Of a DNA stretch of 64,000 nucleotides, positions 9,654-17,250 are shown in pieces. The position numbers and the translations under genes were made by a program. The DNA is taken from the NCBI GenBank assembly GCA_965228735.1, contig OZ245838.1, forward strand, positions 1,664,001 through 1,728,000, in the 5' to 3' direction. This stretch comes from Planctomycetota bacterium (GTDB lineage: Bacteria > Planctomycetota > UBA1135 > UBA2386). The notes under the pieces were generated by a model. The model made no database searches and had not been told where the DNA came from. It worked only from the letters and a program-made list of their open reading frames with translations. The first letter of the stretch is position 1. Every line of letters starts with the position of its first letter.

Positions 9654-9725
9654 GGCAAGGGACCATCGTCCGCCTCGCACATGCGGCTTGACCTGACCCG
9701 GCCGTCCTGCCGAAGTACCTGGCGC

Positions 9726-10124
9726 GTGAGCCCTCTCTCCGAACGCGACCTGCACGTCCTCGCCATCGTCGGCGACCCGCGGCCCATGCAGGCCCTGCTC
9801 GCCGACCTGCGCGACCAGTGCATCGCTGTCGACGTTGCCAAGGGGCTTACGGAAGCACGGACCGCGTTCTTCGGCTCGGGCGGCCACGACTGCCTCGTCG
9901 TCGGCCCCGACGTCGCGCCCGGACTCGCCGCGCGCGTGCTCGGGTCGCTGCGCGCGGTCGACCCCAACCTCGCGGCCGCCACGTTCGCGCCGAGTGCGAC
10001 CGAGAACGGCCGCGACGCCGACCGCGCACGTTCGCGCACGGCGATGCTCGCGGGATTCCACCCGAGCTCGCGCGCGGGCAAGGGCGCGCTGCTGCGGTTT
10101 CTCAGCGGGCTGGCGCGCGCCTGA
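9726..10124 (+). CDS. hypothetical protein, possibly a degenerate receiver (CheY-like) fold
   Basis: HVLAIVGDP...AVDVAKGLTEA...HDCLVVG pattern with no Asp at the expected phospho-acceptor site. Start uncertain (9681 or 9726). Confidence 0.55.
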   Translation: MSPLSERDLHVLAIVGDPRPMQALLADLRDQCIAVDVAKGLTEARTAFFGSGGHDCLVVGPDVAPGLAARVLGSLRAVDPNLAAATFAPSATENGRDADRARSRTAMLAGFHPSSRAGKGALLRFLSGLARA

Positions 10125-12302: not shown

Positions 12303-12380
12303 TGGGGTGGCTAACGGGATTCGAACCCGCGACCTCCAGAACCACAATCTGGCGCTCTAACCGACTGAGCTATAGCCACC
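12303..12380 (-). tRNA. tRNA-His (GUG)
   Basis: Reverse complement GGTGGCTATAGCTCAGTCGGTTAGAGCGCCAGATTGTGGTTCTGGAGGTCGCGGGTTCGAATCCCGTTAGCCACCCCA, with encoded G-1, C discriminator and CCA. Confidence 0.97.
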
Positions 12381-12495: not shown

Positions 12496-12571
12496 GCCTC
12501 CGTAGCTCAGTCGGTAGAGCAGCGGATTCTTAATCCGCGGGTCCTAGGTTCGAGCCCTAGCGGAGGTACCA
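12496..12571 (+). tRNA. tRNA-Lys (CUU)
   Basis: GCCTCCG/CGGAGGT acceptor stem, anticodon arm GCGGA-TTCTTAA-TCCGC, GGTTCGAG T-loop, CCA. Confidence 0.97.
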
Positions 12572-13926: not shown

Positions 13927-15816
13927 CTACGCCTCGCCGACGGACGAGACCGGGCTGTGCGGCGCCATCACGGGCTCGCGCGGCAGGCGCAGGTAGAACG
14001 TCGTGCCGACGCCCTCCTCGGAGTCGAACGACACCGTGCCGCCGTGCGCCTGGACGATCTCGCGCACGATGTGCAGGCCGAGGCCGCTGCCGCTGATGCC
14101 CGAGCTGTTGCTGCCGCGCGAGAACCGGCGGAACAGCTTCGGCCGGTCCGCCTCGGGGATCCCGATGCCGTTGTCGCGCACGTAGACCTGCCACATGTCG
14201 TCGCCGTCGTCCTCGCAGCCGACCTCGATGCGCGGCTGCCGGTCCTGGGCGGCGAACGACACGGCGTTGCCGATGAGGTTGAGCAGGACCCGCTTGAGCC
14301 CCCACGCGTCGGCCTCGATCGTCGGGCCCTCGACGATCTCGACGTCGACGTCGGCCACCTCGAGCTCGAAGTGCAGGGTGCGCACGACCTCGCGCGCGAC
14401 CGCCGCCACGTCGCACGACTGGAACTCGAGCCGCACGCCGTCGTGATCGAGCTGCGAGCTGTCGAGCAGGTCGCTGACGAGCTTGCGCATCACGTCGATG
14501 CCCTCGAGGCCGTGCTGCACGGCCTCCTTGACCTTCGCCGGCACCTCGCCGAGCGTGCCACGCTCCACGAGGTTGAGCATGACGCCGAGCGCGCCGAGCG
14601 GGCGCTTGAGGTCGTGCACCGCGGTCTGCGTGAACTCGACGAGGTCGTGGACCTTCTTCTCGTAGCGGCTGCGCTCCTCGTCGAGCTCGCCGAAGCGTTG
14701 CGCGAGTTCGAGGTTGGCCTGGACCGAGTGGTCGAGCATCTCGGTCGCGCCCTCCTCCTCGGGTGCGGCAGGCGCGCTCTCGGGCGCCGCAGCGTGGGCC
14801 GCGTTGGCGGCGTCGACGAGCGCGTCGGCGGCCAGCTTCGGTGCGTCGACGAGCTCGTCGAGGTCGATGTCGAGGTCCTCGTTCGTGAGCACCTCACCGC
14901 TCGGCAGCGGTGCTGCCGGACCCGAGACCTCGTTCAGCGAGTAGTCGAGCTGGAAGTCCTCGTCCGTGGCCTCCTCGGCCGTCGCGCCAGGAGTGCTCGG
15001 CATCTGCTGCTGCAGCTCGTCGAGCAGCTGCGGCGAGTCCCAGAACGGATCCTCGAGCGCGGGGTCCGCGGCGGCCGGCGATTGACCGTCCGGGATCTCG
15101 ACGCGCACCTGCGGCGTCTCGTCGATCGGGGTGACCTCGCGCGCGCGACGGGCCTCGTCGCACGCCTCCCACAGCCGCTGCCGCGCCTCGTCGGCGACGG
15201 CGCGCGCGTCGAACTCCTCGTCGAGCTCGAGTCGCGCGACCTGGCCCTCGATGAGGCGCCCGGCCGCTTCGACGAACGCCTCGAACACGCCGTGGCCCTC
15301 GGTCGCGACCGTCGGGAACGCATCGATGTCGTCGCGGAACCGGAAGTGCTGGTCGAGCTCCGGCTCGGACAGGATGTCGTCCAGATCGCGCTTGTTGTAC
15401 TGCATCACGATCGGGATGTCCGCGGACGTCGTCCGGATCGTGCTGAGGTTGTCGCGCATGCTCTGCAGCGACTCGAGGTTCTCCTGCAGGCGGCTCGCCT
15501 GGCTGTCGACGACGAACACCACGGCGTCCGCGCCCTGCAGCACGAGCTGCCGCATGAGGCGATACTTCGGCTGCCCGGGAACGGTGTAGCCCTTGATGCG
15601 GATCTTGAACCCGCCGATCGTCCCGAGGTTGATCGGCAGGAAGTCGAACATCAGCGTCGAATCCTCTTCCGTGCTGATCGACAGCAGCTGCACCTCGTTG
15701 CGCGGGCTGAAGATGCTGTGGACCTGCTGCAGACTCGTCGTCTTGCCGCCCACGCCGACCCCGTAGTACACGAGTTTGGCGTTGATCGTCCGTTCCGCGA
15801 CGTTGATGTAGCCCAT
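13927..15816 (-). CDS. MglA-family GTPase fused to a histidine kinase (HisKA + HATPase_c)
   Basis: N-terminus: INAKLVYYGVGVGGKTT, TLMFDFLP, YTVPGQ, GADAVVFVVDSQ, QYNKRDL. Then an acidic linker. C-terminus: HDLKRPL, NLIGNA, DNGIGI, LFRRF, GSGLGL. Confidence 0.92.
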   Translation of the reverse strand: MGYINVAERTINAKLVYYGVGVGGKTTSLQQVHSIFSPRNEVQLLSISTEEDSTLMFDFLPINLGTIGGFKIRIKGYTVPGQPKYRLMRQLVLQGADAVVFVVDSQASRLQENLESLQSMRDNLSTIRTTSADIPIVMQYNKRDLDDILSEPELDQHFRFRDDIDAFPTVATEGHGVFEAFVEAAGRLIEGQVARLELDEEFDARAVADEARQRLWEACDEARRAREVTPIDETPQVRVEIPDGQSPAAADPALEDPFWDSPQLLDELQQQMPSTPGATAEEATDEDFQLDYSLNEVSGPAAPLPSGEVLTNEDLDIDLDELVDAPKLAADALVDAANAAHAAAPESAPAAPEEEGATEMLDHSVQANLELAQRFGELDEERSRYEKKVHDLVEFTQTAVHDLKRPLGALGVMLNLVERGTLGEVPAKVKEAVQHGLEGIDVMRKLVSDLLDSSQLDHDGVRLEFQSCDVAAVAREVVRTLHFELEVADVDVEIVEGPTIEADAWGLKRVLLNLIGNAVSFAAQDRQPRIEVGCEDDGDDMWQVYVRDNGIGIPEADRPKLFRRFSRGSNSSGISGSGLGLHIVREIVQAHGGTVSFDSEEGVGTTFYLRLPREPVMAPHSPVSSVGEA

Positions 15817-15861: not shown

Positions 15862-17250
15862 TCACCGGACTCGTCTGAACGGATCCCGTTGCACCGTCGG
15901 GAGCAGCACCGCCCGGTAGGGTTTTCCAGCGCCGGTGACCGCGGCGAACGCGGCGTGAGCGTCCGCGGCGGTCACCGCCGCGACCGCCGCGGCGTCGATC
16001 CCGGCGGCCGCCGCCCGCATGGCAACGAGCACCCGACCCGGCGCGACGACGGCTGTCGAGTTCCACGGCAGTGGCGCGTTCTCCGACACGATGACGTCCC
16101 GGGCCCGGGCGAGCTCCTTGCTGCTCGGCGGCCGGTTGTCGAGGTCGTCGAGCAGCTGCTCGATCGCCGCAAACGCCTTGTCCGCGGCGTGACCGGTGTG
16201 CGCGCGCCGCAGCAGGACGAGCACGGGCTCGTGGTCCGCCCACGACCAGGCGACGAACGGCGCGCGGGCCCTGACGTGGACCCCGCGGATCACGGCCGGC
16301 GTGCGTGCCAGCGCGCGCTCGCGGGCGACCTCCACGAGCACGGCGAGCGCTGCACCGCGAAGCTCGCGCGGCACGGCGAACGCGACCGCCGCGAACGGGC
16401 CGTCGACGCGGGAGTGTGGGATGCGTTCGGGCTCGGTGGCGTGCTCCGTGCGAGACGGACTGCGCGTGGCCGCTCCGACGACGTCGGCGAAGGATTGGCC
16501 CGGCGTTGCCGACGGCGGCACCGTGACCGTGAGATCCAGGGGCCGCACTCCCGGGGGCAGCTCGCCGAACACCCGGTACGTCACGCCACCGCGCCACGGC
16601 AGCAGCGCTCGCACGCGCGCGGCCGTCACATTCTGCAGGGCGGCCGCGCTGCCGTGCAGGCCGCGATCGCCGGTCGCTCCGTCGGCGAACGCGCGGCGGG
16701 CGCGGCTCTGCAGCATCGAGCCCGGATACAGCCATTCGGCGTCGTCCGCGACGAGCGCGGCCCGCGCGATCTCGAGCTCGATGGCGTCCGTCGTCGGCGA
16801 CTCGGCGTCGACGTCGCCGCGGACCAACGCCTGCAGGAACGCGACCCCCGCTCGCCACTCCGAGGGGCGAACGGTCACGAAATGGACCGCGCTCCGATCC
16901 CGCACCTGGCTGCCGCTCTGTCGGACCCCGGGGACCGCGGCCCGCGCGCGCGCGCTCCGGCACGCCGCGACGACGCGGGCGACCCCGGCCTCCGCCGCAT
17001 CGTCGTCGAGCACCCCGTGCGGTTCGAGCATGGCGAACACCAGAGTGCCGCTGTCCGGGACGGCAACGATCTGTGGTGTGACGACCCGGCCGACCAGTGG
17101 TGACCCGGGATTCTGGGCCGGCCCAGAATCCCGGGCGGGCGCCGGTTCCTGTGCCGGCGGCGACTCCTGGGCACGGACCACGGCCGAACCCGTCAGCGGC
17201 GAAGCGCAGACCAACGACCAGAACAACGACGACGAACGGAATGGAGTCAT
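15862..17250 (-). CDS. exported M16 peptidase-like protein, probably inactive
   Basis: Signal peptide and M16-like segments (GSAAALQNVTAARVRA; IAAVTAADAH-like tail). No HxxEH motif. Confidence 0.6.
   Translation of the reverse strand: MTPFRSSSLFWSLVCASPLTGSAVVRAQESPPAQEPAPARDSGPAQNPGSPLVGRVVTPQIVAVPDSGTLVFAMLEPHGVLDDDAAEAGVARVVAACRSARARAAVPGVRQSGSQVRDRSAVHFVTVRPSEWRAGVAFLQALVRGDVDAESPTTDAIELEIARAALVADDAEWLYPGSMLQSRARRAFADGATGDRGLHGSAAALQNVTAARVRALLPWRGGVTYRVFGELPPGVRPLDLTVTVPPSATPGQSFADVVGAATRSPSRTEHATEPERIPHSRVDGPFAAVAFAVPRELRGAALAVLVEVARERALARTPAVIRGVHVRARAPFVAWSWADHEPVLVLLRRAHTGHAADKAFAAIEQLLDDLDNRPPSSKELARARDVIVSENAPLPWNSTAVVAPGRVLVAMRAAAAGIDAAAVAAVTAADAHAAFAAVTGAGKPYRAVLLPTVQRDPFRRVR

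Follow-up and report, generated by a model that had tools for sequence, protein, structure and literature searches.

A conserved gene fusion joining an MglA-type small GTPase domain to a histidine kinase core in uncultured Planctomycetota

To our knowledge, small GTPases and two-component systems communicate only via separate proteins, as with Frz-RomR-MglA in Myxococcus and in the actinobacterial conservons. Here we describe P0001, a gene in which an MglA-type GTPase (G) domain and a histidine kinase core are encoded as one polypeptide. It lies on the reverse strand of a 64,000-nucleotide stretch of DNA from a Planctomycetota bacterium (assembly GCA_965228735.1, contig OZ245838.1, positions 1,664,001 to 1,728,000), which was analysed as a whole and is called the window below. 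Among the closest described systems, MglA is defined by size in the main survey of prokaryotic small GTPases as a single-domain protein of 150-240 amino acids (aa); that survey left out proteins longer than 240 aa, and it gives an intrinsic arginine next to the G2 threonine as conserved by every Group 1 MglA (PMC4316618). An mglB gene within four genes of mglA is usual for Group 1, although not universal. Conservons (also termed AGPS) are described as comprising the kinase CvnA, the roadblock protein CvnB, CvnC and the GTPase CvnD (PMC13343842; PMC4316618). As for HisKA kinases, an acidic residue directly after the phospho-accepting histidine (H+1) is reported to be needed for kinase activity, and Thr or Asn at H+4 for phosphatase activity (PMC3510030).

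The features of the gene are the following.

13927..15816, reverse strand: whole gene P0001, 629 aa, with MglA-type G domain, linker, coiled coil and histidine kinase core (reading frame, Pfam and structure database search)
15232..15816, reverse strand: MglA-type G domain, aa 1-195, with G1 GVGVGGKTT, T54, TVPGQ82 and NKRD, and with the beta2 patch L55/M56/F57/F59 retained (sequence and structure matches)
15658..15660, reverse strand: Ser53, where MglA has its intrinsic arginine finger Arg53 (alignment to MglA)
15142..15231, reverse strand: helical extension, aa 196-225, common to all fused relatives and to kinase-less orthologues
14752..15141, reverse strand: acidic, proline-rich linker, aa 226-355, variable in length and predicted to be disordered, with two short conserved motifs (235-241 and 308-319)
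14632..14751, reverse strand: stalk helix or coiled coil, aa 356-395, opening with LLxxAVxxNxExA; predicted docking site (docking modelled on a relative)
14443..14640, reverse strand: HisKA (DHp) domain, aa 393-458, with His401-Asp402 and with Arg, not Thr or Asn, at H+4 (Pfam)
13975..14310, reverse strand: HATPase_c domain, aa 503-614, with N, G1, F and G2 boxes (Pfam)
13930..13974, reverse strand: conserved C-terminal tail (P615, H620, S621), with H620 in 167 and S621 in 169 of 175 orthologues

The four best Protein Data Bank (PDB) sequence matches of residues 1-199 were all MglA sequences (E 6e-47 to 5e-46, the next match falling to 6e-7), and the alignment stayed in register across the switch regions. 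Motif residues were located at G19, G21, G24, K25, T26, T27, S53, T54, T78-V-P-G-Q82, N141-K-R-D144 and H401 (HDLKRPL). The Pfam HisKA domain (PF00512) scored 34.9 bits against a cut-off of 26.9, and HATPase_c (PF02518) reached 107 bits, also above its cut-off. These matches confirmed the original prediction of an MglA-type G domain joined to an intact kinase core, which had been made by reading the sequence. Its placing of a serine at residue 53 held in the alignment to MglA, and P0001 has no transmembrane segment, as it had also stated, the 19-residue hydropathy peaking at 1.1. The linker had been put at about 150 acidic residues; it is indeed acidic and proline-rich (13% D, 12% E, 12% P and 18% A over residues 231-355), but its disordered part is only about 125-130 aa long, because residues 196-225 belong to the conserved helical extension. 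An AlphaFold2 model of P0001 built from 24 rows gave both folds, a low-confidence linker (about 227-356) and a single long helix (356-418), with a predicted template modelling score (pTM) of 0.39. Foldseek matched this model to HK853/ZraS and to MglA, while ESM Atlas returned only generic kinase clusters. By its domain and motif content, P0001 is a HisKA kinase.

The prediction had proposed checking the linker for a mis-assembly or a stop. Contigs from three studies, representing three of the four runs compared, each covered the full 2.3 kb with 0, 0 and 2 substitutions and no indel, so that the gene is intact across the linker in these runs; in the fourth run the gene region was in pieces, and one of the four may be the source of the genome itself. 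With contigs from three studies running unbroken through the P0001 gene, a mis-assembly or linker stop was rejected.

Group 1 MglA (Myxococcus xanthus and Thermus thermophilus; PDB 5ymx, 6izw, 6h17 and 3t12), whose GTPase-activating protein (GAP) is MglB, gave the best sequence and structure match of residues 1-195. P0001 shares its G1 GxxxxGKT, G2 Thr, TVPGQ, NKxD and hydrophobic beta2 patch. Unlike Group 1 MglA, it has Ser53, a helical extension and a fused kinase bringing it to 629 aa, and the usual mglB is neither adjacent nor within four genes. Having no Arg53 and more than one domain, it falls outside the Group 1 definition. The genome (7.19 Mb, a single contig) also holds one canonical MglA, and the P0001 clade is separate from the clade of that protein. 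This second MglA, which emerged when the genome was searched for mglA and mglB as had been proposed, has Arg53 and a hydrophobic C-terminus, and its gene is flanked by two roadblock genes and lies behind DUF4388 and TPR genes. As in HisKA/HATPase_c sensor kinases such as HK853 and ZraS, the P0001 kinase has complete DHp and CA domains, a histidine followed by an acidic H+1 residue, and an input module ahead of a signalling helix; it differs from kinases of that type in its small-GTPase input, in Arg or Lys at H+4 and in having no adjacent regulator gene. The likeness to conservons lies in a histidine kinase tied to an MglA-family GTPase without the intrinsic Arg, with no response regulator nearby. 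Conservons, however, consist of four separate proteins with a Group 2 GTPase (GTPGQ), whereas P0001 is one polypeptide with the Group 1-type TVPGQ, no CvnB or CvnC and no LPxR tail. Where the conservon has an LPxR kinase tail and GTPGQ, P0001 reads LPREP and TVPGQ, and its neighbours are not those of a conservon operon but an ABC ATPase, a thioredoxin-like gene, RidA, coaD, comEC and tRNAs.

Two further systems are comparable in part. LRRK2 is a Roco protein linked to a kinase, and Roco proteins resemble P0001 in having a Ras-like G domain, which in eukaryotic members shares its polypeptide with a kinase. Their described architecture is Roc-COR (PMC4316618); Roc belongs to the other (Rup) branch, needs COR and is joined to a Ser/Thr kinase, none of which applies to P0001, in which Pfam found no COR or leucine-rich repeat match at E 0.01. 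The MglA of Bdellovibrio bacteriovorus, which has Ser21 and no MglB, is like P0001 a natural catalytic-site variant, and it has been proposed to be GTP-locked and uncoupled from MglB (PMC3983030). That protein stands alone, and its altered residue is number 21 instead of 53; the GAF-containing relatives of P0001 described below are changed at residue 21 too.

The fusion occurs in three families of one Planctomycetota order. In a sample of 250 genomes of the class, a close G-domain match (at least 57% identity, E < 1e-65) was present in 52 of 57 genomes of family f1, 2 of 2 of f3 and 8 of 8 of f7, and was not found in f10 (0/134, of which 124 had a weaker MglA match only), f9 (0/38) and five small families (0/11). 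The 80 loci kept in an orthologue search came mostly from Planctomycetota metagenome-assembled genomes (MAGs), one of them labelled CL500-15, and all labelled source organisms of the fusion family are uncultured (MAG records). Across 175 distinct full-length orthologues, residue 53 was Ser in 149, Ala in 22, Gln in 4 and Arg in none, so that the loss of Arg53 is conserved within the P0001 clade. G1, T54, Q82, K84, H401, D402, N513, N517 and D548 were invariant in all 175, the TVPGQ G3 motif in 139 of 139, and L55, F57 and F59 of the beta2 patch in 54 of 54 clade rows; G21, K25 and NKxD were invariant or nearly so. Conservation thus covers the catalytic cores of both the G domain and the kinase but not the length of the linker, which ranged from 50 to 162 residues over 139 sequences. 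The H+4 residue was Arg in 160 orthologues, Lys in 13, Ser in one and Gln in one, in place of the Thr or Asn that is typical of, but not obligatory for, HisKA membership. Because Arg stands at H+4 instead of Thr or Asn, P0001 probably acts as a kinase that has little phosphatase activity or none.

A profile search of 1.84 billion representatives retrieved numerous further proteins that combine a kinase with an N-terminal G domain, and a second search added at least 100 further fusions among the matches listed. Their Pfam layouts include MglA-GAF-HisKA-HATPase, MglA-PAS-HATPase(-REC) and GAF-less forms, and they come from Planctomycetota and Acidobacteriota (Thermoanaerobaculales, Holophagaceae). 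A 400-genome sample of the phylum placed GAF fusions in families f42, f62 and f98. Other planctomycete families (L301-L308, L313, L314, L316) encode stand-alone MglA orthologues of about 222 aa that have the helical extension, Gly21 and Arg53. Their genes adjoin glycosyltransferase and cysteine-desulfurase-like genes, as named from sequence reading, and at L309-L311 a G domain is followed by GAF without a kinase. Automatic annotations of the fusion proteins read 'signal transduction histidine kinase/signal recognition particle receptor subunit beta' or 'ATP-binding protein'.

In a 56-row tree, all 37 fused G domains formed one branch (Shimodaira-Hasegawa-like approximate likelihood ratio test, SH-aLRT, 92), with the P0001 clade (100) inside a planctomycete sub-branch (99); the kinase-less orthologues also fell within the fused branch. 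A recent duplication of the genome's own mglA was rejected by the approximately unbiased (AU) test (p=3e-8), and so was a single origin of all fused kinase cores (p=7e-5), both for groups named after the trees had been seen. The HD-box core of the P0001 clade fell together with PocR-sensor kinases (P0191/P0243) and another group of GAF-less fusions, apart from the GAF members, whose cores have an HE box; the kinase cores nearest to the clade carry a PocR-type sensor at the position of the G domain. Given the rejection of a single core origin, the G domain and stalk would have moved as a unit onto a new kinase. The simplest history would then be an old module of G domain and stalk, the downstream kinase having been exchanged in the P0001 lineage.

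All fused forms open their coiled coil with the LLxxAVxxNxExA helix, whether GAF, PAS or the kinase comes next. A hidden Markov model (HMM) of this stalk, covering a 24-residue motif (356-379) with a threshold of 15 bits, matched 152 of 167 G-domain proteins (61 of the 67 outside the training set) and none of 92 kinases without a G domain; its sole match in the genome was the P0001 open reading frame (ORF). Among 30 loci of the phylum the motif occurred in kinase-bearing forms only, and a split form with the stalk helix in a neighbouring gene was found at none of the 30. The helix was kept through the kinase-core swap, and in P0001 it continues directly into His401. At three loci (L234:7001-8797, L200 and L196) the G domain and stalk motif precede a C-terminal domain without a Pfam match, perhaps a decayed kinase.

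The L293 fragment comprises 290 aa from the N-terminus of a relative with a short linker, taken as they occur in nature; its AlphaFold2 model (150 rows) reached a pTM of 0.85, with a predicted local distance difference test (pLDDT) of 78-94 over the distal stalk helix, climbing to 94 where the helix ends. By our own estimate an unplaced helix would limit pTM to about 0.7, so a free-floating helix is hard to reconcile with this model; the G domain and the stalk helix are predicted to pack together. Foldseek placed the L293 model at a root-mean-square deviation (rmsd) of 1.9-2.0 from MglB/GTP-bound MglA, against 2.8-3.6 from GDP forms. For MglA itself, a GTP-driven screw movement of beta2 is described as presenting L55, F56, F57 and F59 to the two-helix face of MglB (PMC3199381).

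The original prediction asked whether loss of Arg53 is conserved among the fusions. Outside the P0001 clade it is not: 134 of 135 GAF-containing MglA-kinase relatives retain Arg53, and its loss as a general trait of such fusions was rejected. Since these fusions keep the residue, its absence is not a property of fusion as such; the loss is derived and was not required for it. The same relatives have Ala or Pro at position 21 in 131 of 135 cases, and the P0001 clade has Gly21 without Arg53 in 175 of 175. Both residues are present in 11 of 11 kinase-less orthologues, in 47 of 48 short stand-alone MglAs and in 10 of 21 other GAF-less fusions, all 10 belonging to one cluster. MglA Gly21 corresponds to Ras Gly12, and the substitutions G21V and R53A are each reported to lower hydrolysis with MglB binding kept; R53A loses most of both intrinsic and GAP-stimulated hydrolysis (PMC3199381). 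Kinase-fused G domains therefore seem to escape a complete catalytic set in two ways, through a change of Gly21 or the loss of Arg53.

Our preferred reading, to which we give a probability of about 0.5, is that the G domain hydrolyses GTP slowly, binds the stalk ahead of His401 and controls the kinase according to its bound nucleotide. The MglA-type domain would reach back across its flexible linker to the stalk helix immediately ahead of His401, and its occupancy by GTP or GDP would switch autophosphorylation. By analogy with MglA biochemistry, hydrolysis would be slow without Arg53, in which case the switch would track its GTP/GDP occupancy, or some partner's competition for the switch surface, and not a fast GTPase cycle. 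The affinity of MglA for GTP has been estimated as about 100-fold weaker than for GDP (PMC3199381); weak GTP binding together with slow hydrolysis could let the domain report the GTP/GDP balance or answer a competing partner. The idea that the G domain acts as an input module, put forward in the original prediction, gains indirect support from the PocR-type sensor at the same position in the nearest cores and from the stalk helix that travels with the G domain.

Several observations weigh against gating through the stalk. Docking was modelled on the monomer of a relative of the GAF type that retains Arg53; it was read from the model's confidence scores and not from coordinates or contacts, and the stalk rows of the P0001 clade were misaligned in the underlying alignment. 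P0001's own model (pTM 0.39) showed no docking. By VIA-align the L293 model favoured the GTP state only slightly: its rmsd was 1.8-2.0, compared with 2.2-2.4 to most GDP forms, and the Z values overlapped. Covariation between G domain and stalk gave scattered inter-domain pairs in an underpowered analysis (effective number ~116-134). The linker of P0001, at about 130 aa, would fit a tether equally well; the 40 rows with the shortest linkers, out of 150, have 19-34 aa. In other planctomycete families the orthologues consist of a stand-alone G domain that lacks both stalk and kinase, and the G domain therefore has a job of its own. Finally, P0146, P0151 and the P0239 cluster are exceptions that keep both G21 and R53, and the G21/R53 pattern rests on few events because related sequences are not independent.

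The fusion is a real, conserved and apparently unpublished architecture of two known domains. The original prediction knew of no characterised example, and none was described in the titles or abstract starts of the papers that full-text searches listed, subscription journals being mostly outside coverage. More tentatively than for the single protein, these proteins might form an undescribed, widespread class of G-protein-gated histidine kinases. A portable MglA G domain with a docking helix that mimics MglB would have been grafted onto at least two unrelated cores and repeatedly tuned to slow hydrolysis (through Gly21 or Arg53), letting the GTP/GDP balance or polarity proteins set a phosphorelay. 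If true, a guanine-nucleotide switch would join the list of kinase input domains. A single soluble protein with both GTPase and kinase, and with a predicted contact beside the phospho-accepting histidine, makes the coupling testable in one tube, and the natural variation (Arg53 retained or missing, Gly21 intact or altered, with or without GAF, with or without kinase) provides a ready comparison set.

The G domain could instead be a localisation tag, which we consider unlikely. Staying mostly GTP-bound, the domain would attach to a polar landmark, or to the MglB-like proteins of the same genome, and bring the kinase to a cell pole, with no allostery. Such a role would suit the long disordered linker, the retained MglB-binding patch and a genome that holds a canonical mglA, two roadblock genes and five PilT-family ATPases (all five above cut-off). 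MglA R53A is reported still to bind MglB and to form polar clusters (PMC3199381), and the Ser21 MglA of Bdellovibrio has been proposed as a polar protein that stays GTP-bound permanently (PMC3983030). A tag would, however, leave unexplained both the stalk motif linked to the G domain and the L293 model with its pTM of 0.85; moreover, the fused domain is distant from the resident MglA in the tree, and no roadblock gene adjoins it in the window or in the conserved neighbour families scanned.

That the domain is a pseudo-GTPase, a permanently nucleotide-bound cap or a protein-binding sensor on the stalk that does not cycle, appears improbable. Arg53 is missing from all 175 orthologues, and the clade has a long stem branch with several fixed changes near the switches (G76, P83, M88), as might be expected of such a domain. 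Against this, Q82, T54, G21, K25 and NKxD are invariant or nearly so, and retention of the catalytic Gln points to continuing selection for hydrolysis or switching. Arginine is also missing from MglA groups 2-5, yet CvnD9 is reported to have GTPase activity (PMC4316618).

Signal flow in the reverse direction seems more doubtful still. The kinase core would regulate and the G domain would be the output, dispensing with a response regulator, as Wuichet and Sogaard-Andersen posit for the GTPase of actinobacterial conservons (PMC4316618). The window and the conserved neighbour families scanned hold no canonical receiver, and 25 of 135 GAF-type relatives have no recognisable H-box, both of which would fit. 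Reverse flow would nevertheless leave the kinase without an input domain; His401 and the DHp helix are strictly conserved, as expected for phosphotransfer, and the genome has 60 receiver domains. It is very improbable that the GTPase is still efficient, with another basic residue replacing Arg53 in cis (Lys84) or from the kinase dimer or a partner: K84 is invariant (175/175), Q82 and G21 are kept and the kinase has conserved arginines R405 and R567, but K84 is also the commonest residue in Arg53-keeping fusions (53 of 96), and R567 is presumably an ordinary ATP-lid residue.

The fusion gene comes after a conserved run of comEC, coaD, ridA, a thioredoxin-like gene, an ABC ATPase gene and an unannotated gene, and is followed by tRNA-His. 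Directly upstream in many loci is a conserved gene (15862-17250, reverse strand) with a signal-like N-terminus and no Pfam match, which by eye we take to resemble an inactive M16 peptidase. Just downstream lie tRNA-His (12303-12379, reverse strand) and tRNA-Lys (12496-12571, forward strand); beyond the tRNAs, relatives carry different genes (for an ECF sigma factor or for bPH_2), a pattern like that of an integration site. The 64-kb window contains no mglB and no Pfam receiver, in agreement with the early remark that neither an mglB nor a canonical response regulator was nearby, and the conserved neighbour families scanned gave no roadblock or receiver match. That remark needs qualifying for the wider genome, which encodes MglB-like proteins (two Robl_LC7 matches beside the canonical mglA, 4.7 Mb from the fusion), and for a degenerate receiver-like ORF 3.8 kb downstream. 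This ORF (about 9681-10124, forward strand) has no Pfam match, resembles receiver clusters in ESM Atlas (0.94-0.95) and by eye shows no Asp at the acceptor position. Searches turned it up in 12 of 13 f1 genomes, as a weak match in 2 of 2 f3 genomes and in 0 of 5 f7 genomes; it is often unlinked to the fusion, which it neighbours in a sub-clade only. The canonical locus (C1:6367165-6373622; L033:5166-11623) runs from a DUF4388/beta-propeller gene through a TPR gene to roadblock, MglA and roadblock genes, the two roadblock genes occupying C1:6371503-6371871 and C1:6373110-6373622, in an order shared by three f1 relatives compared, and its MglA ends in an Ala/Gly-rich linker and hydrophobic C-terminus that are a likely membrane anchor.

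No cognate response regulator was identified among the genome's 60 receivers, all of which lie outside the window. Two single-domain receivers are highly conserved in the fusion-bearing families, in patterns that shared ancestry alone can explain. Receiver C1:884831 was present in 20 of 20 fusion-bearing genomes and 6 of 30 others, and has no adjacent histidine kinase; it follows an anti-sigma-type HATPase gene and a SpoIIE phosphatase gene (C1 ~882500-885200; L275:4488-7185), and is a candidate target of the orphan kinase P0001. Receiver C1:2895863 follows a PAS kinase of its own; it was present in 20 of 20 fusion-bearing genomes and in none of 30 others. Its cluster (C1 ~2894700-2901100; L274:5749-12115) consists of a phosphotransferase system (PTS) enzyme I-like gene, so named from sequence reading, a STAS gene (in relatives), the PAS histidine kinase and the receiver, which is 79-87% identical across f1, f3 and f7. 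In one relative a small Myb-like-repeat gene (L279:2645-3355) stands between the enzyme I-like and STAS genes, and in seven f1 genomes the cluster lies 9-13 kb from the canonical mglA.

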